Below are positions 11,711 to 39,304 of a stretch of DNA of 64,000 nucleotides, piece by piece (the stretch's first letter is position 1; each line of letters opens with the position of its first letter). This stretch comes from Candidatus Omnitrophota bacterium. GTDB lineage: Bacteria; Omnitrophota; Gorgyraeia; Gygaellales; Profunditerraquicolaceae. The notes under the pieces are model-generated. The model worked only from the letters and a program-made list of their open reading frames with translations. It did not search any database and was not told the DNA's origin. The DNA lies in the NCBI GenBank assembly GCA_041662125.1, contig JBAZTA010000003.1, forward strand, positions 71,992-135,991, given 5' to 3'. A program made the translations under genes and the position numbers.

Positions 11711-13555
11711 TCAAAACTCAATTTTCACGCCATTGGTGATAGCAAATCCCGGCATGGGAAATTCGCGGATCACTTCATATTTTTTGTTTAACAGGTTATC
11801 AATAGAAAAGTAATACGTGAAATATGGGTTGAATCTTTTTGATGCATGTATCCCGATTGAGTAAAATCTTTTCACTTTGACCGTGTTTGCGGCATCGTGG
11901 TAGCGTTTGTCGGTAAATTGAGCGTTTATTTTTATGGAAAAGCCATGTAAGTCTGCGTATGCAAGAGAACAATCAGCTTTATGTTTTGGCTGGTAGATAA
12001 GGTATTTGTTTGTTTGGTCATCGATCGCGCGCAAAAAAGTATATCCGGTATTAAACTGAATATTTTTCGCAAGCGAGATTTTATTCTCAAATTCTATGCC
12101 GTCAATGAGCGCTGAGCCTACATTATCAGGCATCCAAACTCCTGCATCTTCTGCCCAGTTGATCAGGTCTTTGAAGTCATTCCTGAAGTAAGTCAGGCGT
12201 GTGGTTAAAAAGTCATTGATGGATAGTGTTGTGCCGATTTCTTTTGTTATTCCTTTTTCCGGTTTTAATCCGGGATTTCCTTTTGCCCATCCTTCATCAG
12301 GCCAGTAGAGATCATTAAAGGTAGGCGCGCGGAAAGACCGGCTGATCAATCCATGGAATTTTAAGACAGGATTGAAGCGGTAGAGAAAGGAAAAATTGGG
12401 GTTGCTTTGAGTTCCGAAATTCGAATAATCGTCGAATCTGGCCCCTAAGTTGAATTCTAAATTTTCTAAAGCAGTGAATTTGTTCTCTAAATAACCGGCT
12501 ACGACGTGGTAGTTATTCTTTTGGGAATTAGTGCTGTCATTGGTATTGCCAATATAGTTAAAGCCACATATGAAGTGATAGCGGTCCTGGAAGAGTTTTT
12601 TATTGCCTTGAATGTCAAAGCCTGTTACGTTGGTCGTATGGATATCTTTTTTATTTGCGGTATCAAAAAAAGATCCGGCTGTGAACTCACTAAAAATCAA
12701 TTTATCATAACTGTGGTAGGATTTGAACGATAATCCAGCCGATTCATCAGGCGTATATTTCCAGGTGAGATCTTGAGAATTCTTTCGGGAATTCTGCTTG
12801 TCATCGGAATCAGGCTGGGATAGAGAGCCGGGTGAGCCGAGGTTGCTGGAATAAAAGCCGGAATTGAATATGATTGCATGGGCTTCGTGAGGCGTATATT
12901 TTAATTTCATATTATAATCTTGCGCGTTGAATAATGCGTTTGCCCTGAAGCCGTCTGAATGGGTATATCCATGGGTGAAGAGGTATCCGAATTGTGAGTT
13001 TGCGTTTCCATTTGTCAGGCGCTGGGTATAGGTGCGTAAGCTCCCGATACTGGAATATAGTTCTGTCTTAGGGCTTTTGCGCGGTGGATCTTTGGTGATG
13101 ATGTTAATCGCCCCCCCCATGGCGCTTGAACCGTAGAGATGGGATACCGGCCCATGCACGATTTCTATTTTATCTACCGTATCCAGCGGGATCATGCTTA
13201 AATCAGCCTCTCCATTTCTTGGGCTGTTTATAGGCTTGCCGTCGACCATAACTAACGTTTGCGCCGCGCTTGAGCCGCGCATGCGAATGTTTTTGGTCGC
13301 CCCCGGTCCTCCATAATTACTTATATTGACTGCGGTAAATTGCGTGAGGAGTTCGCTGAGGTCGCCTGATGCTGTTTTTTCAATGTCTTCTGAAGTTATC
13401 ATATCGACATTTTGAGGGGTATTTCCCGATGGTTCTTCGGTGCGTGAAGGGGTTACAACGATCTTTTCTAATGAAAGGTCCTGACTTTTCGAAATGCCAT
13501 AAAAGCTTAAAAAAACCAGTGCCGTTAGTATTACGTTCTTGATGCGTGGTATCAT
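11711..13555 (-). CDS. TonB-dependent outer-membrane receptor, BtuB-like (cobalamin/siderophore class)
   Basis: 614 aa. It has a signal peptide, TonB box LEKIVVTP, a plug domain, a 22-strand barrel and a C-terminal aromatic residue (…GVKIEF). It lies directly downstream of a candidate cobalamin riboswitch within the cob/btu locus. Confidence 0.85.
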   Translation of the reverse strand: MIPRIKNVILTALVFLSFYGISKSQDLSLEKIVVTPSRTEEPSGNTPQNVDMITSEDIEKTASGDLSELLTQFTAVNISNYGGPGATKNIRMRGSSAAQTLVMVDGKPINSPRNGEADLSMIPLDTVDKIEIVHGPVSHLYGSSAMGGAINIITKDPPRKSPKTELYSSIGSLRTYTQRLTNGNANSQFGYLFTHGYTHSDGFRANALFNAQDYNMKLKYTPHEAHAIIFNSGFYSSNLGSPGSLSQPDSDDKQNSRKNSQDLTWKYTPDESAGLSFKSYHSYDKLIFSEFTAGSFFDTANKKDIHTTNVTGFDIQGNKKLFQDRYHFICGFNYIGNTNDSTNSQKNNYHVVAGYLENKFTALENLEFNLGARFDDYSNFGTQSNPNFSFLYRFNPVLKFHGLISRSFRAPTFNDLYWPDEGWAKGNPGLKPEKGITKEIGTTLSINDFLTTRLTYFRNDFKDLINWAEDAGVWMPDNVGSALIDGIEFENKISLAKNIQFNTGYTFLRAIDDQTNKYLIYQPKHKADCSLAYADLHGFSIKINAQFTDKRYHDAANTVKVKRFYSIGIHASKRFNPYFTYYFSIDNLLNKKYEVIREFPMPGFAITNGVKIEF

Positions 13556-13584
13556 GGTTCTCCTTTTCTTTCCGTCGAAAGTAC

Positions 13585-13730
13585 TTCCTTGGTAGGTGAT
13601 AGACCGGACTTCTCTTACTTTGATAAGAGTTTACCGTTGCGGGGCAGTGGCTTTTGATTTTTCTTCTCCTTTTATGGAGACCTGTCTCCTTGCAGGCTCA
13701 AATAAGCACTTCCTTCACCTATCCGGGTTT
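13585..13730 (-). promoter_or_regulatory. candidate cobalamin (B12) riboswitch in the leader of the BtuB-like receptor
   Basis: The minus-strand RNA has a closing P1 (GGAUAGGUGA...UAUCACCUACC) enclosing GCCACUG, CCCGCAACGGUAAA and a B12-box-like AAGUCCGGUCUAUCACCUACC. It sits immediately upstream of the receptor start. Confidence 0.45.
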
Positions 13731-25187: not shown

Positions 25188-26357
25188 TTAGATTCTTCCT
25201 TCTTGATAAGCTTTTGTAAATGCTGCGACAATGTTCGGATTAAACTGCTGGCAGGCGAGGCTCTTGATCTCCTGAAGAGCTTCTTGTTTATCCTTTGCTT
25301 TACGATAGGGCCTGTCCGTTGTCATGGCATCGAAACTGTCGGCGACCGCGATAATAGCAGCGATTAGGGGGATATTTTCTTCACGTAATCCATCGGGATA
25401 TCCTTTTCCGTCATAGCGTTCATGGTGGTACTTTACCCCTAAAATGGCGTTTCCTAACTCTCCAATTGAATGAAGTATATTGGCGCCGATTACGGGGTGT
25501 GTCTGCATTTTTTTCCACTCTTCAGGCGTTAAAGGCCCTTCTTTGTTCAAGATGTTTTCCGGTATGCCGATCTTCCCGATATCATGGAGGAGTGCTGCTA
25601 TATGTAAATCTTCATAAAATTTATCCGCCAGGTTTATTGATTGTTCCTGGATTACTGTTTTGGCGATCTCGACACTGTAATGCGTTACCCGTTCAGTATG
25701 GCCGTGTGTATAGCGGTCTTTAGCTTCTACTGCCGCAGCAAGCGCGACTGTCGTGTTCATGAAGAGCTTTTGCCTTTTATCCAATTCGTCCTGCAGTTGT
25801 TTGAAAAGGCGCGCGTTGCGCATCGCCATCGCTACGTCTGAAGTCAGCGCGCTGAAAAATGCCAGCTCGTCCTGTTCAAACCGCCTCTTATTTTTCTTTT
25901 TTCCTAAAAATAATATGCCGACCAGGTCCTCCCGGAAAAAACTCGGTATACATACGGCGACATCAAAAATGTCAAGTTGATAGAGTACCTGTTCAAGCAG
26001 AGTCCTTATTTCCGGGCTAATATTCTTATTCTTTTTTAAGGCGTGTTCTGCTTCAGTATAGACGAAGGCCTCGTGATTAAAAAGCAGCCGTTCTTTATGT
26101 TCACGAAAGAACCGGATTAAAGGATTATCTATGTCGAGGCGGGCAAATCCTGCCGGCACCTTTAAGCCGAGCGGGCCCCGTGATACGGTGAGCACGTAGG
26201 TGTTTTGTTCAGGATGGTGCAGTAAAATCCCTGCGTGGCTTACTTGTACTTTTTGTACGACCAGCCTTACGATCATTTTAATGAGCAGGTCAGGCTCATG
26301 TACCAGGATCATGCTTTTAGCTGCCGCTTCAAGTTCTTTTTTGTAATCAATGCCCAT
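25188..26357 (-). CDS. GAF domain + HD-GYP c-di-GMP phosphodiesterase
   Basis: 389 aa: N-terminal GAF, then an HD domain (LLHDIGKIGIP) and the HD-GYP signature HHERYDGKGYPDGL. Confidence 0.85.
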   Translation of the reverse strand: MGIDYKKELEAAAKSMILVHEPDLLIKMIVRLVVQKVQVSHAGILLHHPEQNTYVLTVSRGPLGLKVPAGFARLDIDNPLIRFFREHKERLLFNHEAFVYTEAEHALKKNKNISPEIRTLLEQVLYQLDIFDVAVCIPSFFREDLVGILFLGKKKNKRRFEQDELAFFSALTSDVAMAMRNARLFKQLQDELDKRQKLFMNTTVALAAAVEAKDRYTHGHTERVTHYSVEIAKTVIQEQSINLADKFYEDLHIAALLHDIGKIGIPENILNKEGPLTPEEWKKMQTHPVIGANILHSIGELGNAILGVKYHHERYDGKGYPDGLREENIPLIAAIIAVADSFDAMTTDRPYRKAKDKQEALQEIKSLACQQFNPNIVAAFTKAYQEGRI

Positions 26358-26363
26358 GTGCCC

Positions 26364-26732
26364 TTATTCTTTTTTTAGGAAAGATAATACAATTCTTTCC
26401 AGCTCTTCCATCACGAGAGGTTTATGGATATAGTCAGAAGCCCCTAAGGCGATACATTTTTGGTAAATCTCTTCTTCGTCAGGTTTTTTACCTGTTACCA
26501 TGATGACTTGAATATCTTTGTTTTTCGCTTTAATGCATTGTAACGTCTCAATCCCGTCTTTACCGTCCATTTTTATATCGAGCAGTACTAATTGCGGGTG
26601 TTCTATATCAATTTTGCTTAATGCGTCATCGCCGCCGCAAGCAGTTTGTACGTCAATGTTACGCTTGCGGAAGAAACTAGCCGCAAACTCTCTGACATCC
26701 TGCTCATCATCAACAATCAGTAATTTAGCCAT
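26364..26732 (-). CDS. single-domain response regulator (CheY-like receiver)
   Basis: 122 aa with receiver residues LIVDDE, the phospho-Asp LLDIKMDG, and T/K at conserved positions. Confidence 0.85.
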   Translation of the reverse strand: MAKLLIVDDEQDVREFAASFFRKRNIDVQTACGGDDALSKIDIEHPQLVLLDIKMDGKDGIETLQCIKAKNKDIQVIMVTGKKPDEEEIYQKCIALGASDYIHKPLVMEELERIVLSFLKKE

Positions 26733-26799
26733 TCTACCCCCTTATTAATATAGCGTACTTCAAAAAAAAGAAAAGTTATTTTATTGCCTCACTGTTGCC

Positions 26800-28695
26800 T
26801 TATTCAAATGTCAGGGTCAGTGAAAAATTATCCTCTGAGTTTCCCAGCGTTACAGGAATGGGAGAAAATGGCGATGCCTGTAAGACGCAGAGTTCAGCGA
26901 CAGCATTTAAATTTTGATTAGTAGAAGTTACAATTTTTACCGGGCTTTTAAGGTTGCCGTCTTCATCAAGGGCAAAAGACAATGAAACTTTGCCTTTTTG
27001 AGTGGGATCATGGCGTGTTTGGGTATTCATTAAGGACTTTATCTTATTTATAATAGTTGTTTTGTATTCATCCAAAGTGCCTGGCTCTTTATTGCCAGCT
27101 TCAGCCGTGTTGTCATTACCTTGAGCTTGGGCAAAGGACTGAATATAGCTTATGTCTTTATCACCGGTGAGGCTGGTATATTCAAGAGGTTCGGCGCCGG
27201 TGATTATATGGGGAGTAATAAAAATCACCAGCTCCGTCTTTATGTTTTCAGTCCTGGTATTTTTTGTGAAAATATTGAGAATTGGTATATCACCCAAGAA
27301 TGGTATCTTTTTTTCTTCTTTTTCCCGCTGGTCTTTTTTAAGGCCGGCGATAATTATGGTTGTGCCGTCTTTTACCATGATCGTTGTTTCAGACTCAGAA
27401 GTGGTGACGATGGGGATCTGGGTAATTTTGCCGTCTGCGGTTATGTCGGTGCGTTTCGCGGAGCTAATTTCAGGTTTTATTTTCATGGTGACAAAACCGT
27501 CCCGGTTTATCGTCGGGGTAACATAGAGTTTAATCCCGACATCGACGAAATTCACCGATTGTGAAGTAACCGAAGAATCTCCCGACTGCGTGATGGCGGA
27601 AGTGATATAGGCTTCTTTGGTCCCGACCAGGATCTTTGCTTCCTGGTTATTCAGTGCCATGATCCGGGGGCTGGAAAGGATCTTGGTTTTTCCTATTGCG
27701 CTGAGCAAGTTGATCACTGATTTATATTCGCCTTTTTTGCTTACCGTTTCATTTGCAGCAGCAACTCCGAAAGATAGTTTGTTAGGGATGCTGGTAACAT
27801 CGCTTAAGGAAGGCGCTGGCAGCGAACTGACCAGCCGGACGTGGTCTTTAAGCCAGTAATCCCAGTCAATTCCCATGGTGAACTGGTCTTTTTGAGGGGT
27901 AATTTCGATGATTTGAGCGTCAATTAAGACCTGTTGTGTTTTTTCATCAAAAGCAGTGATAATTTTGGCTATGTCGTTGAGTTTTTCCGGGTAATCGGTT
28001 ACCGCGATCTTATTGGTCCGTTCATCGATTTTCATGGAGCCGATCGATTTTGTGATTGTTTCTGCGAGTTTTGCGCTTAATTTTTCTGCCGTCGCGTATT
28101 TAAGCTCAAAGATCATGGTTTCCAGAGGCAAGTCGGTTTTCAGGATAAAACTTTCTATTTCAGCTACTTTTTCCGGCGTATCGACTATGGTAAGGGTGTT
28201 TGAGCCTTCATCAACCACAACTTTGCCGATATTTGATTTTAGCTGCATAATGGCTTTCGATAAGTCTGCGGCTTTGGCATTCTTTATATGGAATACCTGC
28301 ACCTCTTTTTTATCCTGGAAACGTTCACCGTAAATAAGCTCATAATCACGTTGCGTCATGACGTTGATAATATCGTTTTTCTTGTCATAGGCGAGGTCAT
28401 TGGCAGATAACAGGATTTGAAAGGCTTCCCAGAGATCAACATCTTTTAGAAAGAGCGTTACTTTTCCGGTGACATTTTTTCCGACAATAATATTTAACCC
28501 GGAGCGAGTCGCAAGCATTTTCAGGACATCAGTAATGTCCATGCCCTTTATATCAAGTGAAACCCTGTTTTGTTCAGACGGCTTGGATATTTCCATTTGC
28601 GCAAGTTTTGCGTTTTGAGATATTTCCTGCGCAAAGGCTCTTGGGATAAACACGAACAATAGGAAACATAGGTATATGGTAATTCCCTTTTTCAT
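26800..28695 (-). CDS. type II secretion / type IV pilus secretin (GspD/PilQ family) with C-terminal TonB_C-like domain
   Basis: Start reassigned to MKKGITIYLCFLLFVFIPRAFA (signal peptide; RBS GGAGGA sits 6 nt upstream). It has N0/N domains and a secretin core (ILSSPRIMALNNQEAKILVG...IPFLGDIPILNIFTKN...ELVIFITPHII). The final ~95 aa (GKVSLSFALDEDGNLKSPVKIV...AVAELCVLQASPFSPIP) align with the C-terminus of the local TonB at 10827-11549. Confidence 0.85.
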   Translation of the reverse strand: MKKGITIYLCFLLFVFIPRAFAQEISQNAKLAQMEISKPSEQNRVSLDIKGMDITDVLKMLATRSGLNIIVGKNVTGKVTLFLKDVDLWEAFQILLSANDLAYDKKNDIINVMTQRDYELIYGERFQDKKEVQVFHIKNAKAADLSKAIMQLKSNIGKVVVDEGSNTLTIVDTPEKVAEIESFILKTDLPLETMIFELKYATAEKLSAKLAETITKSIGSMKIDERTNKIAVTDYPEKLNDIAKIITAFDEKTQQVLIDAQIIEITPQKDQFTMGIDWDYWLKDHVRLVSSLPAPSLSDVTSIPNKLSFGVAAANETVSKKGEYKSVINLLSAIGKTKILSSPRIMALNNQEAKILVGTKEAYITSAITQSGDSSVTSQSVNFVDVGIKLYVTPTINRDGFVTMKIKPEISSAKRTDITADGKITQIPIVTTSESETTIMVKDGTTIIIAGLKKDQREKEEKKIPFLGDIPILNIFTKNTRTENIKTELVIFITPHIITGAEPLEYTSLTGDKDISYIQSFAQAQGNDNTAEAGNKEPGTLDEYKTTIINKIKSLMNTQTRHDPTQKGKVSLSFALDEDGNLKSPVKIVTSTNQNLNAVAELCVLQASPFSPIPVTLGNSEDNFSLTLTFE

Positions 28696-28706
28696 ATTAG
28701 TCCTCC

Positions 28707-28800
28707 TGCCACAGAAAGTGGCATACCGGCCTATCCGATAAGGCCGGGTGTAAACAGCACCCCAGCTAATAGGTATGCTGGGTGCGCCCTTTCTGGGCAG
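28707..28800 (-). repeat. structured intergenic element, copy C (inverted relative to A and B), directly upstream of the secretin RBS
   Basis: Minus-strand RNA: a closing stem CUGCCCAGAAAG/CUUUCUGUGGCAG encloses hairpins CACCCAGC-AUACCUAUUA-GCUGGGGUG and CCGGCCU-UAUCGGAU-AGGCCGG. Hairpin 1 is near-identical to the second hairpin of copy A. Confidence 0.5.
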
Positions 28801-28816
28801 TAAGCGAAACATGCCG

Positions 28817-29458
28817 CTATAAGTATAGTTCAAATTTTTGCCCCTTATGATTGAGGATTATTTTGCCGTCAAGTATTTCTTCGACCATGAGTTCTCCGAT
28901 ACATTGGCCTTTGGAGACGTAATAGGTCTTTTCTGTTTTTTTATCTTCAATGATCGCCTGAGGATTATCACCGGCAATAACACCGACAAGATTTATGTCT
29001 TTCAGGAGATCGTGATTGACCGAAGCCATGCTTGTGCTTGTTTCCAAAGCAGCCTGGCTGTGAAACATTTGCTCGTTATTGATGCCTGTTTGATAATACT
29101 CAAGCGGTTTTATAGGGCTTGAACTTATTACTGGTTTCTGCACAATGCCTGGTTTCTCTTTTATGTCAGAGATGTTGATCGAAGGCGAGTTTATGAGAGG
29201 ATAGATCAGAGATCCTGTCAAGTATGCGAGTGAAGCGAAAAAACAGATCAAAACTATTTTTCCCGGGTTTAATCTTAAAGATATTATGTGTTGTGGCTTG
29301 ATTTTTGCATGGCCTGTTTTTGTTTGAACACTCGGCTCTGGAAGAGGGGGAACCCGTCCGGTTTGCAGCATTGATTGTTTTTCTGCCGGAAGGCGCTGTT
29401 TTTGCTCGTTTCGTATAAGCCGTAAAAGTTTTTCTTCAGGTGAAATATTGTCAGCCAT
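28817..29458 (-). CDS. GspC/GspB/PilP-like secretin-interacting inner-membrane protein
   Basis: 213 aa with one TM (IVLICFFASLAYLTGSLIY) and a C-terminal beta-domain (LVGVIAGDNPQAIIEDKKTEKTYYVSKGQCIG...ILDGKIILNHKGQKFEL) resembling the GspC HR / PilP fold. It lies between gspA and the secretin. Confidence 0.5.
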   Translation of the reverse strand: MADNISPEEKLLRLIRNEQKQRLPAEKQSMLQTGRVPPLPEPSVQTKTGHAKIKPQHIISLRLNPGKIVLICFFASLAYLTGSLIYPLINSPSINISDIKEKPGIVQKPVISSSPIKPLEYYQTGINNEQMFHSQAALETSTSMASVNHDLLKDINLVGVIAGDNPQAIIEDKKTEKTYYVSKGQCIGELMVEEILDGKIILNHKGQKFELYL

Positions 29459-29460
29459 AG

Positions 29461-30273
29461 TTATGCGCGTGCTGTTATTAAATGCTGGATAATCTCTTCA
29501 TCTACAGAGCTTTTCCCTTTCATGACGACAGTTTCCAGGGCATCATGGCATAAAAGCGCAATTTTGCGGGGATGCCCTTGAGTTTGTTCATAGATCAAAC
29601 GTATCGCTCCCAATGAAAATAACTCATCAGGGGCACTATGCCCGGCTTGCATAAGACGAAAAGCGATCATTTCTTTAACTTCCGTTTCGTCGAACGGATT
29701 AATGGTATATTTGAGGGCGATACGGTCGATAAAATTATTGATCCTCTTGATGCGCGGCAAGAGTTCCAGTTGCGCCATAATTACCAGTTGTAATAGTTTA
29801 AATTCATTGGTCTCGTAGTTGAGCAGCATGCGTAAGACTTCGAGGTTTTCGGTCGAGATAGTTTGTCCTTCATCAATAAGCAGGATTATCGTTTTATTCT
29901 CATTGATGCCGGCATGAAACAAATATTTTTCCAGGTCTTCTTTGAAAGTCAGGGTTGATTTAAAAGTTGATTTGATCCCGAAGATTTTTGTTAAGCTTAA
30001 CAGGAATTGAAATTCCGATTTATAACTGGGATCGAGGATCATATGGAAGACAAAATCGTCTTCGTTCTTGAAGGTTTGCAGGAGCGTGCGCGAGAGTGTT
30101 GTTTTGCCCATGCCGACATCCCCTAAAATTAAGCTTAAGCCTCTGCGCAGCCTTATGGCGATTTCCAGGCGTTTAAGTGTGGTGTCATGGCTGACGGAAC
30201 GGTAAAGGAACGCGGGGTCGGGGCTGGTAGAAAACGGTTCTTTTTCAAGTCCTAATACTTTAAAGTAACTCAT
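29461..30273 (-). CDS. gspA: T2SS protein A (ExeA/GspA-like AAA+ ATPase)
   Basis: 270 aa with Walker A LILGDVGMGKTTL, Walker B ILLIDEGQ and an ExeA-type N-terminus (PF13401-like). Confidence 0.8.
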   Translation of the reverse strand: MSYFKVLGLEKEPFSTSPDPAFLYRSVSHDTTLKRLEIAIRLRRGLSLILGDVGMGKTTLSRTLLQTFKNEDDFVFHMILDPSYKSEFQFLLSLTKIFGIKSTFKSTLTFKEDLEKYLFHAGINENKTIILLIDEGQTISTENLEVLRMLLNYETNEFKLLQLVIMAQLELLPRIKRINNFIDRIALKYTINPFDETEVKEMIAFRLMQAGHSAPDELFSLGAIRLIYEQTQGHPRKIALLCHDALETVVMKGKSSVDEEIIQHLITARA

Positions 30274-30481
30274 TCTTTATCTCATGAAGTGACTTATCTT
30301 GTTTTCTTAAGCTGCGAATTACCTTTAATGTTTCAACGTTTGAATCATTGAAATAACGATAATGGGTTTCAGGGCTACGGCTGATTTCTTTGAGAAGGCC
30401 AATTTTGAGGTAAAATTTTATGGTATGAATTGAATATCCGGTAATACGCGCTAAATCTTTTATTAAGTAAATGTTAGAAAT
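30260..30481 (-). CDS. small MerR-family HTH protein (non-ATG start; overlaps the gspA start codon)
   Basis: Reverse-strand frame reads ISNIYLIKDLARITGYSIHTIKFYLKIGLLKEISRSPETHYRYFNDSNVETLKVIRSLRKQDKSLHEIKNELL*, a canonical MerR HTH and wing. An RBS GGGAGG lies 5 nt before an AUU/AUC codon. It is absent from the ATG-only ORF track. Confidence 0.5.
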   Translation of the reverse strand: MSNIYLIKDLARITGYSIHTIKFYLKIGLLKEISRSPETHYRYFNDSNVETLKVIRSLRKQDKSLHEIKNELL

Positions 30482-30582
30482 GATTACCTCCCTTTACTCT
30501 CTAACTAGAGAGTATATCAGTTCCTGTATATTAGTCAAGGATAATTAGAGGAGCGATTTGGGATTGAGCTAAAGGGCGTGAT

Positions 30583-31110
30583 TTAATCAATAGAAAGCTT
30601 GGAAATACTGAAGTTTGCTTCAAGTAACGCAGAGTTAGTGCGAGAGGTGAATTGAAATCGTTTGATACGTATTAATAAAAGTGAGTTCTCCAGATTGTAA
30701 ATGAATTTAACATAATCATTAAGCGCGCCTTCTGTCCTTAATTCTATCAGGATTTCTTCGTAACTACCCTCTTCTTTTCGCAGTTGAGGCCGTATATCTA
30801 GTATTCTGATATTCGCCGTATTTGCCATATTCTCAATTTCGGAAAGCGTTATGAGCGTGGAATTTTCTTTAGCTCCTGAAACCGGGCCGGAAGCGCTCAA
30901 ACTGGTGTATTTTGTCTGCAGGGCCTGTTTTTGGCTTAAGAGTTGAAGGTATTTCTTCAGTTTTGTTTTCGTGCTGTGTATTTCTATGTTTAAAAGGCTT
31001 ATTTTTCGAATAACAGGTGTTATGATAAAATTATAGAATACGCTCAAAGATACGATTCCTATAGTACAATACAATATTGCTTTTTCTCTTTTGCTAAGTA
31101 TTTTCTGCAT
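30583..31110 (-). CDS. GspM/PilO-like inner-membrane assembly protein
   Basis: 175 aa with an N-terminal TM, a coiled coil and a C-terminal ferredoxin-like domain. It sits at the gspM position. Confidence 0.5.
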   Translation of the reverse strand: MQKILSKREKAILYCTIGIVSLSVFYNFIITPVIRKISLLNIEIHSTKTKLKKYLQLLSQKQALQTKYTSLSASGPVSGAKENSTLITLSEIENMANTANIRILDIRPQLRKEEGSYEEILIELRTEGALNDYVKFIYNLENSLLLIRIKRFQFTSRTNSALLEANFSISKLSID

Positions 31111-32549
31111 TACTGTTTCCCTTTAGTATTGTTGCAGGCAATCTCAAAGTCGACCATATCGCCGGTTTGGCTTTTGTTTTGAGTGGCATATTTCACTTTT
31201 ATCGTGAAATTCCTGAATATCGGTAATTTCTCAAGCACAGAGATAAATTCGAACACGGTACTCAAAGTTTGCGCTTGGCCGTGTAATATGATCTGCGAGT
31301 TTTCTTCATAGATAAGACTGGTTAATGATAGTGTATTGGGGACCGCGTTGTTTAACTCATAGAATACTTCAAGGCTTGAAAGGCGTTTCTCTGACCTGGT
31401 TTCTAATATCTTAAGCCTTGTATCCATCTCTTCTAAGGGTTTTGCCTCAGTTGCGAGCCTGGAAAGTTCCGCTTTTAACCGGTTTAAATAGTCAGTTTTT
31501 GTATTGAGGTTCTTTGCTATTGCGGCGCTTACCATGAATATGATACCGATAATTAAGAGAGCAATACGCAGATATGCATAGCGTTTAGACAGTTTTATAT
31601 GTTCTGATTTTATCTCATGAGGCAGAAGTTTTAAAGATTCTTCAATACTTCCTCCTCCCAGTCCAAACATGCTGACATAAGAAAATGGCGTGTTGGCAAG
31701 TGTTGCGGTTACCGCATCCGGTAACCTTAATTGGTCAGGAAATGTCCGTATGTCAGAGGATGGAATGGCCTGATCATTGAGTACTTCGTTTATACGCGTC
31801 AGTGATGCAGGTGTCCCTAAACATACTATTTTTTGCGGCTCTGTTTTTCCGACTTCTTTGAGAAAGGCATCGTTAGTTTTAATGATTTCTTCCCGCAACA
31901 GGTTTTTCCAGCCGGATGCCGGGCCGCTTAATTTAAAATACCGGTTGAAGAGTATTTTATTGTTAGCAATGATGATCAATTCGACCAGTTGGCCGTCAAT
32001 ATCCAGAAGCATAACCGGGGAAATTTCCTCAGGGTATAAACGGCAATAAAGGTTACTTATGCCGTAAGAGCTTAAGGTGAAGGAGAGTTGAGAGCATTTG
32101 AAGCTGTTAAAGATCCTTAGAGAACGTTGGAGTGTTTCTTTATGGGCGATAATCGCATTGATCACAGAAAAACCGTCTTTGTCTTTTTCAATGACCTGAT
32201 AGGCGGTAATTAATTCTTGCGCAGAATAAGGAAGGTATTTTGCCGCCTGTAAAGAAAGCATTTTATCTATTTCTTCGGGTAAGTGTGTGGGGAATTTTAG
32301 ATACCGGCAGGTCGTATTTGCCCGGGGGAATGAAACAATGATCTCATTTTTATGGAACCCAAGTTTTTTTAATGCCTCAGATAGGGCTTCTGTTATCTTT
32401 TTCTCATCCATGCTTTCCGCAGGCAGCATGATGGTTTCTAACGCAACAAAATCATTATAAGGAGTATTGCCCGGAAGGCATTTAAGCACCCGTATGGTGT
32501 TTTCAATGATCTGACAGACAAAAATAGGTTTTTTAGTTTTAGCTTTCAT
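31110..32549 (-). CDS. GspL-like protein (PilM-type actin-like cytoplasmic domain fused to TM and PilN-like periplasmic domain)
   Basis: 479 aa: residues ~1-300 have the PilM/FtsA-like fold, a TM (LRIALLIIGIIFMVSAAIA) follows, then a ~130 aa periplasmic coiled-coil/PilN-like domain. Confidence 0.7.
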   Translation of the reverse strand: MKAKTKKPIFVCQIIENTIRVLKCLPGNTPYNDFVALETIMLPAESMDEKKITEALSEALKKLGFHKNEIIVSFPRANTTCRYLKFPTHLPEEIDKMLSLQAAKYLPYSAQELITAYQVIEKDKDGFSVINAIIAHKETLQRSLRIFNSFKCSQLSFTLSSYGISNLYCRLYPEEISPVMLLDIDGQLVELIIIANNKILFNRYFKLSGPASGWKNLLREEIIKTNDAFLKEVGKTEPQKIVCLGTPASLTRINEVLNDQAIPSSDIRTFPDQLRLPDAVTATLANTPFSYVSMFGLGGGSIEESLKLLPHEIKSEHIKLSKRYAYLRIALLIIGIIFMVSAAIAKNLNTKTDYLNRLKAELSRLATEAKPLEEMDTRLKILETRSEKRLSSLEVFYELNNAVPNTLSLTSLIYEENSQIILHGQAQTLSTVFEFISVLEKLPIFRNFTIKVKYATQNKSQTGDMVDFEIACNNTKGKQ

Positions 32550-34026: not shown

Positions 34027-34397
34027 CGTAAATATGTTTGAAAGGTTATCGTCTCTTGCCTTTTTGACCTCATCCAGCGTATATCAACGCTGGAGGTGTA
34101 CAGGTTTAATTCTGTGTTTAATTCTTTCTGAAAGCGCAATTGGAATTTGCCGGCCGTAGTGCGGCTGTCAGGATTTTCTTGAGCGATAAGAGAATTATTC
34201 TCTTTGAATTCCAGTTCCTGCAGCTTATCTTTTGCCAGTAAAACTGCCTGGAGCACCTCGCAGGATAACGCCGCCGAACGGGTAGAAAAAGAGAATCCTT
34301 GTAATATAATGACGATACCCGATGAAAGTATCGCTATAGAGATCAGCAGCTCTAATAATGAAAAAGCGCCTTTACTGCTCCTTAGTTTTAATCCCAC
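34023..34397 (-). CDS. minor pseudopilin, GspI-like
   Basis: 124 aa with KGAFSLLELLISIAIL. Size and gene order fit GspI. Confidence 0.65.
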   Translation of the reverse strand: MGLKLRSSKGAFSLLELLISIAILSSGIVIILQGFSFSTRSAALSCEVLQAVLLAKDKLQELEFKENNSLIAQENPDSRTTAGKFQLRFQKELNTELNLYTSSVDIRWMRSKRQETITFQTYLR

Positions 34398-34812
34398 CGA
34401 ATACTCCTTGTGTTGTCAGGGTGATGTTTTGTTTTTGCCTGTTGATAAGTGTGATGGTGACTTTGTCGATTGTTCCGTCAGGATAAACGAATATCTCCGG
34501 TTGGTCGGATTCTATGTGTATGCCGTCGGGCAGGCGGTAATTCCGAAAATGGCTGGCATCGGCCTCAAATTTTACCCGGTAACTATTTTCTTGAGTGTCC
34601 AGGATTAAACGTATGGGTTTTGTTTCGACGATCGCCCGCTGGCTCAGGAAGTTGATATATGCTTGTAACTGCCGTGAAGCGTTGGCCAGTTGTATGTTCT
34701 CGGCGGAACGCTTGAATTGGGGTAATGACAGGGCGGTCAAGATCCCCAGCAGGGTTATGACGATAAGCAGTTCGATAAATGTAAAACCAACATGTCCCGG
34801 CGTCTTGGTCAT
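34372..34812 (-). CDS. minor pseudopilin, GspH-like
   Basis: 146 aa with GFTFIELLIVITLLGILTAL. Confidence 0.65.
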   Translation of the reverse strand: MTKTPGHVGFTFIELLIVITLLGILTALSLPQFKRSAENIQLANASRQLQAYINFLSQRAIVETKPIRLILDTQENSYRVKFEADASHFRNYRLPDGIHIESDQPEIFVYPDGTIDKVTITLINRQKQNITLTTQGVFGGIKTKEQ

Positions 34813-34818
34813 AGCCTT

Positions 34819-35238
34819 TTACCAGTTACTTATATCATCATGATCCCCTTCTATCATATTGGCACCCGCAGAAGAAAGATCATAATTTTCATTATGCGCG
34901 CCGGGAGATGTATAGGAATAGGCATTGCCCCAGGGGTCTTTGGGAACTTTTTTAAGGTACGGCCCTTTCCAGCCCTTCAGCGATCCCGGGTTAGTGATAA
35001 GTGCTTGGAGCCCTTCTGTAGTCGCAGGATAACGGTCGTTATCGGTTTCGAAGATGTCTAATGCCAGTGCGATAGATGCGTTTATTTCCGACTGGGCAGC
35101 GGCGATCTTTGCAGTTTCAGAACGCCCCACGAGCCGGGGAGCGACCATCGCAGCTAATATGCCGATAATGACCACGACAAGCATTAATTCTATTAACGTA
35201 AAGGCTTTAAGAGGTTGTTGCTTGAGCTTTTCTATCAT
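34819..35238 (-). CDS. gspG: T2SS major pseudopilin G
   Basis: 139 aa. KAFTLIELMLVVVIIGILAAMVAP...DPWGNAYSY...YDLSSAGANMIEGDHDDISNW has the GspG-specific DPWG and C-terminal calcium-site motifs. Confidence 0.9.
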   Translation of the reverse strand: MIEKLKQQPLKAFTLIELMLVVVIIGILAAMVAPRLVGRSETAKIAAAQSEINASIALALDIFETDNDRYPATTEGLQALITNPGSLKGWKGPYLKKVPKDPWGNAYSYTSPGAHNENYDLSSAGANMIEGDHDDISNW

Positions 35239-36459: not shown

Positions 36460-38169
36460 TTAGGTGAGTTCTTCCTGCTGGGTGACGCGTATAACTTCGG
36501 TTAACGTCGTAATGCCAAGTTCAACTTTTTGCATTCCGTTTTGACGCATCGTGCGCATCCCTTGCGCAATGGCCTTTTGCATAATGTGCTGGCTGGAGGC
36601 GTGATTTATGATGAGATCCCGTATAGCGTCAGTGACCGTGAGGATTTCATAGATCGCAGTCCTCCCCTGGTATCCGGTAAAACGGCATTCTTCGCAGCCC
36701 GTGCCTTCATAAAACACGGCATTTCCAGATTTGGAATTCATATCTTTTATCTGTCCCAGTATTTCTTTTTTCGACGGTGAGACAATCTTGCATTTTGGGC
36801 AGATCACCCTTACTAAACGCTGAGCAATAAGGCATTCAAGCGAGGATGATACTAAAAATGGCTCCACTCCCATATCGACAAGACGAGTTACTGCGCCGGA
36901 TGCGTCGTTGGTATGCAGGGTTGAGAAAACCAGATGCCCCGTTAATGCGGCGCGTATCGCGATCTCTGCGGTCTCATAATCCCGGACTTCTCCGATCATC
37001 ATGATATCAGGGTCATGGCGCAGCATGTGCCGCAATCCCATGGCAAAATCAAGGCCGATCTTAGGTGAGACCTGCATTTGGTTGACGCCTTTGAGCTGGT
37101 ATTCTATGGGGTCTTCTATCGTGATGATCTTGACTGAGTCTGAGTTAATACGCGCAAGGCTGGCATAAAGTGTCGTCGATTTTCCTGAACCGGTCGGGCC
37201 GGTAACGAAAATGATCCCGTGAGGTTTTTTGATCACCTGCTCGATGATCGCTAAATCCTGCGGCAGAAGCCCTAATTTCTCAAGTTCGAGGAAAAAACGC
37301 TGGCTTAAGATCCTGATGTGTACAGCTTCCCCAAAGGCCGTCGGCAGGGTCGAAATACGCAGGTCAAGTTCGGTATCATTAATGCCTATTTTTATCCTTC
37401 CATCTTGCGGCAGCCTGTGTTCTGCGATATTAAGGTGCGCCATGATCTTAATGCGTGAGACGATCGCTTGATGGAATACACTAATGGTTTTGGGAATGTT
37501 GATATTGTAGAGGATGCCATCAATACGAAACCGAGTACGCAATTCACCTTCAAATGGTTCCAGATGAATATCGGTTGCCCGGTCTTTAATGGCTTCGGTC
37601 AGTATTTGATTGACAAATTTAATGATTGAGGCGCCTTCGGCCAAGGATTCAAGGTCTTCGGTTTTTTGTATATCGAGTTTTGCTTCTTCAGCAGGAAGTT
37701 TTAGCGATATCATCTTCTCGAGCGTTTCAGCTCCTACCCCGTAATATTTCCGGATAGCTTCCTGAATTTGGAATTCGCTGGTTAAGACACCTTTTATTTC
37801 AAAGCCCAAAAGCAGCCGTAAGTCGTCAAGGGTGCGGGTATCCAGCGGGTCTGCCATGGCGATGGTCAGCGTATTTTCGTTTAAGTCAATAGGGATGATC
37901 TTATAATGGCTTGAGAATTTCGGAGTGACCTTTTGAATTACTGCCGTTGGAATCTCCAAATCATTTAACTTGATGTACGGGACATTGAGCTGGTGGGAAA
38001 GCACGGTGAATATCCTCTCCTCGATCGCGAATCCCATTCGAGAGAGGGTAGTGCAGAGATGTTCATGAGTTTTCTTCTGTTCTTTTAATCCGGCTTCTAA
38101 CTGTTCTTTGGTGATGATGCCTTGATCCAGCAGCATCTTGCCGATCATTTTCGTAGATTTTGTGGACAT
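36460..38169 (-). CDS. gspE: T2SS/T4P assembly ATPase (GspE/PilB) with N-terminal MshEN-type domain
   Basis: 569 aa with Walker A GPTGSGKST, Asp/His boxes and a C-terminal CPKC...CEEC zinc site. The N-terminus MIGKMLLDQGIITKEQLEAGLKEQ ... LCTTLSRMGFAIEERIFTVLSHQLNV matches the tandem MshEN c-di-GMP-binding motif. Confidence 0.9.
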   Translation of the reverse strand: MSTKSTKMIGKMLLDQGIITKEQLEAGLKEQKKTHEHLCTTLSRMGFAIEERIFTVLSHQLNVPYIKLNDLEIPTAVIQKVTPKFSSHYKIIPIDLNENTLTIAMADPLDTRTLDDLRLLLGFEIKGVLTSEFQIQEAIRKYYGVGAETLEKMISLKLPAEEAKLDIQKTEDLESLAEGASIIKFVNQILTEAIKDRATDIHLEPFEGELRTRFRIDGILYNINIPKTISVFHQAIVSRIKIMAHLNIAEHRLPQDGRIKIGINDTELDLRISTLPTAFGEAVHIRILSQRFFLELEKLGLLPQDLAIIEQVIKKPHGIIFVTGPTGSGKSTTLYASLARINSDSVKIITIEDPIEYQLKGVNQMQVSPKIGLDFAMGLRHMLRHDPDIMMIGEVRDYETAEIAIRAALTGHLVFSTLHTNDASGAVTRLVDMGVEPFLVSSSLECLIAQRLVRVICPKCKIVSPSKKEILGQIKDMNSKSGNAVFYEGTGCEECRFTGYQGRTAIYEILTVTDAIRDLIINHASSQHIMQKAIAQGMRTMRQNGMQKVELGITTLTEVIRVTQQEELT

Positions 38170-38230: not shown

Positions 38231-39304
38231 TTAATACAGGATAAGCGGATTAAATTTAAGCCTATTGAAAATGAGCCAGCAGGTAGGTGCAATTGCTTTC
38301 CAGGGCTGGAGTGTCCAGAAATCAGAGGCATCGCCGGTGTTTGTAGCCAAGAGGACCGAACCGTCTTTTTGTTGGGCTTTGGTAGCTTCGTTCAGATAAA
38401 AACTATATTTTGAACTTACGTGAGCACGCAAGAACGCCAGTGACATTTGTAATGTGCCTTCCAGCCAAACTGTATCGAGATGGCTGTTATAGTCAAATCC
38501 TTTGATGAGCGCTGATGAGTTATTCAGGGGTTTAATTAAACCCAGGTTATTTTCTGCCCACGATAAGGCGGCAGAGTATTTTACCCCTAAAAGTAAAACT
38601 CCAAGCGATTGCACGTCAGTAACCGCTGTTGAATCAAAGGGGCCGCGGTTGAATCGCGTCCCATCCCATACCGCGGGGCTGGTAATGAATTTTTTGATTT
38701 TTTGCGCCTTGCTATAATATGAAAAAAGATTGTTTAAACGCCCGTAATTAGAAAGTGCAGCGCAGGCGATAATATTATGCTCGGTGCTTTTCCAAGAGTC
38801 ATAGGTGCTGCCTCGCAGTCCTGCGTCATTGCTATCCTGGAGTTTCAGCAGAAAGTCAGCGAGCAGTCTTTGCGTGGCGAGAAACTCTTTGGAGTTCGTA
38901 TGTTTTTGATAAATAGTATATGCTTGTAATAACCATGCGGTATTCCCGCAGTAAGAAACCCCATTGCCTCTTCCTGATGCGTCGGAAAACGTATAACTTT
39001 CGTAAGGCACGTTATCCAGGCTTAATTTTACTTCAGTACTTAACGTAGCCAGGATCTCTTGAGCTAATCCGTAATTGCCCGTGATTGTAAATGCGATCGC
39101 AGCAAGGGCATTGTCATAAACGTAGCTGATATCACTTGCGTCTTCCTGATATGAATCCACAAGCCCTATTCCTTTAATTTGATTGGCGAGAAATATCTGC
39201 GCTTTCCAAGCGGAATTGTTTTTAACTTGCACGGGAGCGCTATATGCGCAGGTAGACATTGCAGTGAAAACAAGTAAGAATAAAATTTTTGCGAATTTCA
39301 TCAT
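38231..39304 (-). CDS. secreted hypothetical protein (signal peptide; possible alpha/alpha-toroid glycosidase-like fold), candidate T2SS cargo
   Basis: 357 aa with signal peptide MMKFAKILFLLVFTAMSTCAYSA. Repeated aromatic/Ala-rich helical segments (YDNALAAIAF, NTAWLLQAY, IIACAALSNYG) suggest a six-hairpin fold. Confidence 0.4.
   Translation of the reverse strand: MMKFAKILFLLVFTAMSTCAYSAPVQVKNNSAWKAQIFLANQIKGIGLVDSYQEDASDISYVYDNALAAIAFTITGNYGLAQEILATLSTEVKLSLDNVPYESYTFSDASGRGNGVSYCGNTAWLLQAYTIYQKHTNSKEFLATQRLLADFLLKLQDSNDAGLRGSTYDSWKSTEHNIIACAALSNYGRLNNLFSYYSKAQKIKKFITSPAVWDGTRFNRGPFDSTAVTDVQSLGVLLLGVKYSAALSWAENNLGLIKPLNNSSALIKGFDYNSHLDTVWLEGTLQMSLAFLRAHVSSKYSFYLNEATKAQQKDGSVLLATNTGDASDFWTLQPWKAIAPTCWLIFNRLKFNPLILY

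Follow-up and report, generated by a model that had tools for sequence, protein, structure and literature searches.

A minimal MerR-type gene with a probable AUU start codon, paired with a GspA-like ATPase gene in secretion clusters of Candidatus Omnitrophota

Canonical MerR regulators, such as MerR, CueR, CadR, BmrR and MtaN, carry an N-terminal winged-helix domain followed by an α5 coiled coil and a C-terminal effector domain for metals, drugs or redox signals, and their operators are dyads placed inside a -35/-10 spacer of 19–20 nt. GlnR and TnrA, which have no classical effector domain and recognise palindromes of about 17–18 bp, are controlled by glutamine synthetase, and the MerR-like CbpM modulates CbpA. 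At the level of translation, infC, the gene for initiation factor 3 (IF3), and Escherichia coli pcnB have conserved AUU start codons. BldC of Streptomyces, a stand-alone MerR-related DNA-binding domain of 68 residues with neither coiled coil nor effector domain, binds direct repeats as cooperative head-to-tail multimers and acts as a global developmental regulator (PMC5859096). In the GspA–GspB (ExeA–ExeB) secretin-assembly module, an AAA ATPase works with a GspB-type partner and a secretin, and no MerR-type gene has been described there (PMC4098917, PMC9239104). Here we describe a gene that touches on all of these systems. It lies at 30260..30481 in a 64,000-nt stretch of a Candidatus Omnitrophota contig (JBAZTA010000003.1; hereafter the window), and we call it mini-MerR; coordinates are window positions unless a locus is named, and all window genes named are on the minus strand. 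The explanation that we favour, with a probability of roughly 65%, is that mini-MerR heads a conserved miniMerR-gspA-gspC/B-secretin transcription unit, starts at AUU, represses its own promoter and is translationally coupled to gspA. The unit sits in a cluster that resembles type II secretion (T2SS) and MSHA pilus systems.

The mini-MerR frame runs from ATT at 30481–30479 to TAA at 30262–30260 and comprises 73 sense codons and the stop. Its translation opens ISNIYLIKDLARITGYSIHTIKFYLKIGLL and ends KNELL, and the complete peptide read from the ATT is ISNIYLIKDLARITGYSIHTIKFYLKIGLLKEISRSPETHYRYFNDSNVETLKVIRSLRKQDKSLHEIKNELL. The in-frame stop on the 5′ side is TAA at 30496–30494. When the frame was read through, no ATG, GTG or TTG was found between the two flanking stops, and the mechanical list of open reading frames (ORFs) therefore omits it. 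A Shine-Dalgarno (SD) sequence, GGGAGG at 30487..30492, ends 5 nt before the ATT and 2 nt before an ATC at 30484. Its predicted duplex with the anti-SD, at -12.8 kcal/mol, is the second strongest among 47 starts in the window, for which the median is -3.05. A preliminary description of this DNA had placed a frame with a MerR helix-turn-helix (HTH) motif between gspM- and gspA-like genes, with a strong SD and out of reach of ATG-based callers, and all of this holds. Its count of 71 codons does not, and of the two starts that it named together, AUU or AUC, the non-ATG character stands while the AUC is the less likely codon.

To place the start by homology, we aligned the N-termini encoded at 80 species-level genome loci (numbered with the prefix L) and in the window on an invariant LIKDL motif. 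At the position equivalent to 30481, homologous to codon 1 of the orthologs, 26 of these 81 loci have an isoleucine codon (ATT in 13, ATC in 12 and ATA in one). An ATT two codons further downstream is found at one locus (L008), an ATG at this position or one to five codons upstream of it at 52, and a TTG at two. We looked for canonical alternatives after the upstream stop or within eight codons 5′ of the isoleucine codon. In 18 of the 26 isoleucine-codon loci, the window included, there was no in-frame ATG, GTG or TTG; in the other eight the lone candidate is a GTG that lies in or overlaps the SD or a palindrome described below, 5′ of the SD core. All 26 carry an AGGAGG-type SD 4–6 nt upstream, typically exactly 5. 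Because the orthologs have AGGAGG 5 nt before the codon equivalent to the ATT, the ATT at 30481 is a better candidate than the ATC at 30484. ATT is also the codon in L001 and L002, the two closest relatives. The NCBI proteins P0007 and P0055 start 'MSNIY' where L004 has its ATT and L014 its ATC, so that public annotation already accepts ATT and ATC starts for two orthologs. AUU 30481 is very probably the initiation codon of mini-MerR. At L002 (3995-4003, protein P0001), callers chose a GTG that overlaps the SD (GGGAGGTGGCTATT), giving 'MAISNTY'; initiation at the ATT, which follows the SD by 5 nt, is more likely, and the called GTG looks like a mis-set start. An upstream mini-ORF feeding re-initiation at the ATT was considered and rejected, as the sole upstream frame ending beside the ATT has no start codon. 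When loci were matched to called proteins to compare annotation by start class, exact matches were few in any class.

The strength of the SD follows the class of the start codon. Duplex energies average about -11 kcal/mol in the isoleucine-codon loci, where they run from -7.9 to -12.8, and -4.0 kcal/mol in the ATG loci, of which 9 of 52 reach -6. With -6 kcal/mol as the cut-off, which is laxer than the weakest SD of the isoleucine class, the association gives a Fisher p of 2e-13, and a Mann-Whitney test gives p=1e-12, both with phylogeny ignored. On a neighbour-joining tree of the adjoining ATPase, all isoleucine-class loci but L055 fall into one large clade and about 11 switches of class are inferred; at the seven or eight places where ATG and isoleucine-codon loci are neighbours the ATG locus always has the weaker SD: L014 (-12.5 kcal/mol) against L007 and L018 (-2.9), L064 (-8.4) against L072 (-2.9), and L008 (-11.7) against L038 (-3.9). 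Several ATG variants resemble single-base conversions of the SD region, as in GAGAGCGATGGAG of L018; a change of this kind looks as though it creates the ATG and destroys the SD at once. The same pattern appears in an independent metagenome sample of 57 loci, where 47 ATG starts average -3.6 kcal/mol and six ATT or ATC starts -8.8. Across species, then, a weak start codon is paired with a very strong SD, and AUG with almost none.

Initiator tRNA reads near-cognate codons inefficiently, and IF3 discriminates against them. The output of mini-MerR may thus be deliberately low, and perhaps sensitive to IF3. As in infC, a near-cognate codon stands at an N-terminus defined by homology, behind a correctly spaced SD and in a frame under purifying selection across species; by analogy with infC and pcnB, a near-cognate start kept by selection in a regulatory gene would imply limited, possibly IF3-sensitive translation. 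Unlike in those genes, the protein here is unrelated, AUU, AUC and AUA interchange, and the near-cognate codons alternate with AUG while SD strength moves in the opposite direction. With some 80 species showing either AUU, AUC or AUA and a near-perfect SD or AUG and almost none, the family offers a clean natural example of compensation between start codon and SD, and the alternation suggests stabilising selection on a low initiation rate.

Substitution patterns indicate that the frame is used. Between the window and L001, the proportions of synonymous and nonsynonymous differences (pS and pN) in mini-MerR are 0.49 and 0.06. For 14 genes with an isoleucine start and no canonical alternative, the median pS is 0.81, near saturation, and the median pN 0.18, and all 14 reading frames are intact. 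This purifying signature argues that the frame is translated in exactly those lineages that lack a canonical start. The peptide matches Pfam PF13411 (MerR_1; E=2.9e-16, 59.8 bits against a cut-off of 21.6) over residues 5–70, and PF00376 (MerR; E=1.9e-8, 34.4 bits against 28.2). The NCBIfam models for CadR, CueR, ZntR and MerR align at model positions 2–67 alone and score far below their cut-offs. On the evidence of its conservation and these matches, mini-MerR is a genuine gene, translated into a stand-alone winged-helix protein of the MerR type that has 73 residues and is predicted to bind DNA.

An AlphaFold2 model of the peptide (mean predicted local distance difference test score, pLDDT, 90.4) has a helix-helix-wing-helix-helix arrangement with the last helix at residues 65–72. 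Foldseek overlays it on the DNA-bound domains of CadR, BmrR, HiNmlR and MtaN with template-modelling (TM) scores of 0.84–0.89 and root-mean-square deviations of 1.0–1.5 Å, the N-terminal fold of canonical MerR regulators. Sequence identity to the canonical proteins is about 30–37% over residues 4–70, with the residues of the HTH and wing retained, and a palindromic target, described below, may be a further point in common. The alignments to BmrR and CadR stop at their residues 65–70, before the dimerisation coiled coil, which makes mini-MerR a bare MerR DNA-binding domain. It ends where α5 would begin; no residues beyond the DNA-binding domain are present for a coiled coil or an effector domain, so that the effector domain said to be lacking is lacking indeed, and a dimerisation domain with it. 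Residues S17, K22, Y24, R42 and R59 are invariant in the family and align with positions that we take to be DNA contacts in BmrR. Whole-chain similarity extends to DNA-binding constructs of GlnR (TM score, normalised to the target, 0.82), and mini-MerR resembles GlnR/TnrA in its lack of a classical effector domain and in a putative palindromic operator of similar length; it differs from them in family and in gene context, and control by a partner ATPase would be conjecture here. The protein is like BldC in being a small, stand-alone MerR-related domain, and unlike it in being tied to one operon and one ATPase partner; the conserved DNA element is an inverted repeat, which argues against a binding mode of the BldC type. 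BldC itself gave no sequence match among Protein Data Bank entries at E≤1 and did not appear among the 50 best Foldseek matches.

A search of 5.8 billion proteins returned 128 homologs of the peptide at 62–88% identity, nearly all of 73–80 residues. Where the records give a name, it is 'MerR family transcriptional regulator' or something equivalent; where they give an organism, it belongs to Candidatus Omnitrophota. Among 1.84 billion cluster representatives, searched exhaustively, only 23 clusters (50% identity) matched at E≤1e-10, after which scores fell to generic MerR proteins at about 1e-7, a drop that marks the family as compact and sharply bounded. The gene had been presented as unannotated, a claim with indirect support. 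Tried with four choices of start, the mini-MerR of the window was absent from a collection of 15 billion protein sequences that has the adjoining GspA-like protein at 100% identity in entries from NCBI, JGI and Logan, and its best match in the 5.8 billion proteins is 88% identical; yet the family is named, and two orthologs are called by NCBI. It is thus no new category, but a minimal MerR-type regulator with a conserved non-AUG start, and it shows concretely how ATG-based callers can lose a conserved regulator. The other start-less stop-to-stop frames of at least 60 codons in the window all run out of frame over called ORFs, and those translated (34118-34333, 34583-34825 and 13380-13697) look like noise. 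Starts at isoleucine codons are therefore no visible genome-wide habit here, by a test that is blind to genes with an internal ATG.

The gene stands behind a recognisable promoter. TTGACT at 30533..30538 and TATACT at 30511..30516 (minus strand), separated by a 16-nt spacer and extended by TG at 30519-30518, form the best sigma-70-like match in 26000-31500, with 10 of 12 positions matching. The arrangement TTGACA-16/17-TATnCT is conserved among the orthologous loci, with cTTGACA at the -35 position. Overlapping its 3′ end, at 30496..30513 (core 30497-30512), lies an 18-bp palindrome, ACTCTCTA-GT-TAGAGAGT. Its general form is ACTCTCTA-NN-TAGAGAGT, with nearly invariant arms and two central bases that vary freely. 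Of the 80 loci, 50 have the exact core, 48 of them as a single copy and two as a tandem pair. With at most two mismatches it occurs in about 75, of which 73 reach far enough upstream to be scored. Its position is always a short way 5′ of mini-MerR, and it usually begins 30–31 nt before codon 1. In 55 of the 73 scorable loci, a TTGAC-like -35, a spacer of 16–18 nt (16–17 nt in 54 of the 55) and a TAnnnT -10 abut the palindrome, and in 35 of these the -10 ends in the two bases with which the palindrome opens. We infer from this placement that the palindrome is an autorepressor operator over the -10 and the transcription start, and we propose ACTCTCTAGTTAGAGAGT as the target DNA of mini-MerR. The spacer of 16–17 nt, against 19–20 nt in canonical MerR promoters, and the position over -10/+1, against a dyad between the -35 and -10, suggest simple occlusion rather than activation by distortion of the DNA.

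The element accompanies the gene at greater distances too. Two distant members, L082 and L088, keep an ACTCT-N8-AGAGT frame, and L084 has an altered palindrome of the same 7-2-7 design (CTCAATA-GT-TATTGAG) alongside an altered recognition helix. When 241 million metagenome records were scanned, 58 of the first 120 exact occurrences fell within 260 nt 5′ of a mini-MerR homolog. About 51 of those listed lie away from one, in sequence with a GC fraction of 0.24–0.66 and with TTGAC at the -35 position in one; given this spread and the missing promoter context, they look like chance matches. A wider regulon was accordingly set aside, as a search of the 64 kb that tolerated two mismatches gave no second match to CTCTCTANNTAGAGAG. 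In 12 loci, a further palindrome follows about 26 bp on. Tandem palindromes were seen at the deeper-branching loci L045, L054, L056, L057, L060, L067-L069, L071, L073 and L077-L079, where the second copy is often a variant such as CTATCTANNTAGATAG. On an unrelated metagenome contig (L142:61-483), seven copies of ACTCTCTANNTAGAGAGT stand 66–70 bp from one another, in what seems to be a CRISPR-like or tandem repeat array that shares the palindrome by chance.

Directly downstream of mini-MerR is a gene for a GspA/ExeA/MshM-like AAA_22 ATPase of 270 residues (29461..30273; PF13401, E=3.3e-16), a TIGR03015-like protein (1e-47, under the curated cut-off) that apparently has the cytoplasmic domain only. 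The two ORFs overlap by 14 nt (ATGAGTTACTTTAA, 30260..30273). The preliminary description had the mini-MerR stop overlapping the gspA start codon; in fact the ATG is at 30273-30271 and the stop at 30262-30260, and it is the ORFs that overlap. The overlap, with the consensus ATGAGyTAyTwTAR, is 14 nt in 45 of 79 loci, 4 nt in seven and 1 nt in two, so that the ORFs overlap in 54 of 79. The gspA-like ATG has no SD of its own (-2.7 kcal/mol). The overlap together with this lack of an independent SD makes it plausible that translation of the gspA-like gene is coupled to that of mini-MerR. Mini-MerR occupies the equivalent position in all 80 surveyed Candidatus Omnitrophota loci, nearly always with gspA-gspC-secretin behind it, and the usual order, found in almost all 80, is pilMN-pilO-[miniMerR]-gspA-gspC/B-secretin. 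PilMN and PilO are missing 5′ of mini-MerR in about 20 loci, which indicates that mini-MerR travels with gspA-gspC-secretin.

Taken together, these features suggest the following scheme. Initiator tRNA would start translation at AUU 30481, and the strong SD would make up in part for the poor codon, so that output stays low. Mini-MerR, probably as a DNA-templated dimer, would bind the 18-bp palindrome over the -10 and the start of its own promoter and thereby repress itself and the downstream secretin-assembly genes. Ribosomes finishing mini-MerR would go on to translate the SD-less, overlapping gspA-like gene, tying the synthesis of the two proteins together. Promoter, operator and minimal MerR protein would then probably make up the control element of the secretin-assembly genes, in a phylum for which genetics hardly exists. 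The interest of the locus lies in the clear evolutionary trade-off between SD and start codon, in a putative operator that can easily be tested, and in an ATPase pairing that is constant and unexplained.

Several points weigh against this scheme. At four loci (L005, L012, L032 and L041), where 4.5–8.2 kb of sequence each contain no palindrome, mini-MerR is still well conserved, so autoregulation at the palindrome cannot be the sole function of the protein. For a repressor with a purely local role, such very high conservation, beyond that of the structural components, is unusual, and the protein lacks the MerR coiled coil through which a dimer would form on a palindrome. The transcription start is predicted rather than mapped, and from a start farther 5′ the palindrome could form an 8-bp RNA hairpin. 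The statistics on SD and start codon are controlled for phylogeny by sister contrasts alone. Initiation, DNA binding and repression are all read from sequence.

With a different emphasis, mini-MerR would work mainly through the GspA-like ATPase, and autoregulation would be secondary. This reading is compatible with autorepression, and we hold it as a tentative possibility. The ATPase might be the missing effector or dimerisation module, in the manner of GlnR/TnrA, or mini-MerR might modulate the ATPase, in the manner of CbpM; GlnR and CbpM are both among the Foldseek matches of mini-MerR. Mini-MerR and the ATPase are the two best-conserved genes of the block, with identities among loci of 56–90% and 55–92% against 21–71% for PilMN, and their frequent ORF overlap and the persistence of mini-MerR where the palindrome is lost point the same way. 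The pair also persists at 39–48% identity in other settings. In L088 and L089 it precedes a DnaA_N-domain protein and a bactofilin with no secretin, and in L090 a PilM-domain protein. What stays constant is therefore the pair of mini-MerR and GspA-like ATPase with its own promoter and putative operator, not the secretion cluster as such. The suggestion that mini-MerR is a cluster-specific regulator is accordingly reasonable in part: its sole recognisable operator lies at its own promoter, which heads the miniMerR-gspA-gspC/B-secretin block, and its constant partner is the ATPase. On the other side, the palindrome travels with the pair, the invariant residues are those that align with the presumed DNA contacts of BmrR, and no fused MerR-AAA_22 protein occurs among the best 120 GspA-like matches, a weak negative as these are close relatives only. 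A stronger version, which we consider unlikely, would make the two proteins an ancient switch in which the ATPase supplies the effector or dimerisation function, senses secretin or pilus assembly and feeds back on transcription of the secretin operon through mini-MerR. If so, the AUU start and the coupling would set the stoichiometry and make the circuit sensitive to IF3 and translational status, and cytoplasmic ATPases of the GspA/ExeA/MshM type would gain a regulatory, DNA-linked role. In any case, the pairing of a DNA-binding domain with such an ATPase, also beyond secretion clusters, gives a new handle on what the ATPase does.

In L088 (647-3868) and L089, the order is mini-MerR (47% identity) and AAA_22, a 438-residue DnaA_N protein, a 73-residue ORF and the bactofilin; there, an ACTCTA-N6-TAGAGT palindrome is present and a strong SD precedes an ATG. 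The mini-MerR candidate of L087 (39% identity, TTG start, 464-1481) was placed outside the family. Immediately behind it comes a gene for a ParA/MinD-type ATPase; here, too, a gene for a P-loop ATPase follows a small HTH gene.

A second alternative detaches the palindrome from mini-MerR, as the operator of another regulator or as a stem-loop in the 5′ RNA with a role in mRNA stability or in the tuning of translation. The arms could indeed pair as an 8-bp hairpin, and at some loci pairing is kept by G-U pairs or double changes, such as CTCCCT..AGGGAG in L031 and CTATCT..AGATAG in L074. In L023, L002 and L076, however, single-arm changes break the pairing, and variation is free at the two central bases but nearly absent from the arms. 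The -10 overlaps the left arm in most loci, and a transcript begun at the predicted start, about 7 nt past the -10 and inside the palindrome, would exclude that arm, which argues for a DNA operator and not an RNA hairpin. The leader folds no better than shuffled sequence (z-score -1.1) and has no Rfam match. Against both forms of this alternative, the palindrome accompanies mini-MerR in unrelated contexts, and we regard them as improbable. That the frame is a pseudogene decaying from ATG to ATT, that the ATT is an assembly error, or that translation starts elsewhere, such as at ATC 30484, would fit the missing canonical start and the failure of the source assembly to call the gene, and is largely refuted by the ATT of L001 and L002, the isoleucine codons of 26 loci, the 14 intact frames under strongly purifying selection and, for the ATC, an SD spacing of 2 nt where the orthologs have 5.

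The genes around mini-MerR compare well with the GspA–GspB module, in that a GspA-like AAA ATPase is followed by a GspC/B-like protein and then a secretin. The GspC/GspB-like gene (28817..29458, 213 residues) has a weak T2SSC match (E=0.001) and is syntenic in almost all loci. The secretin gene, of the GspD/MshL type, spans 26800..28695 when counted from the ATG that gives MKKGITIYL; it matches Secretin (E=9e-46), Secretin_N, N0 and STN and is likewise syntenic. The protein also has a C-terminal TonB_C-like domain (PF03544, E=1.8e-5, residues 566–616), unusual for GspD/MshL-type secretins. Unlike ExeA, the 270-residue ATPase has no Pfam match to a peptidoglycan-binding domain, and unlike in the classical module a MerR-type gene is present. 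In the library searched, we found no paper on the mini-MerR gene, on MerR proteins in Omnitrophota secretion clusters or on a link between MerR proteins and GspA/ExeA/MshM.

Upstream, a PilO/GspM-like gene with weak PilO, T2SSM and T2SSM_b matches (30583..31110) ends 101 nt 5′ of the ATT. It follows a fusion of actin-like PilM with PilN (31110-32549, 479 residues), which is kept in most orthologous loci. Pseudopilins, GspF and an MshE-type GspE lie farther 5′. A 357-residue ORF at 38231-39304, between the GspE-type ATPase gene and a methyltransferase/glycosyltransferase gene, had no Pfam match. Several 'binchicken' records labelled 'uncultured Planctomycetales/Planctomycetia bacterium' (L001, L010, L028, L033 and others) carry the cluster in full synteny and are highly identical to Omnitrophota metagenome-assembled genomes, the L001 mini-MerR at 90%, and their taxonomic labels look doubtful. 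The GspE-type ATPase of the window (36460-38169) has an MshEN N-domain, of the type that binds cyclic di-GMP, and an HD_5 (HD-GYP-like) gene (25188-26357) directly follows the secretin; together, these two genes hint at control of the system by cyclic di-GMP.

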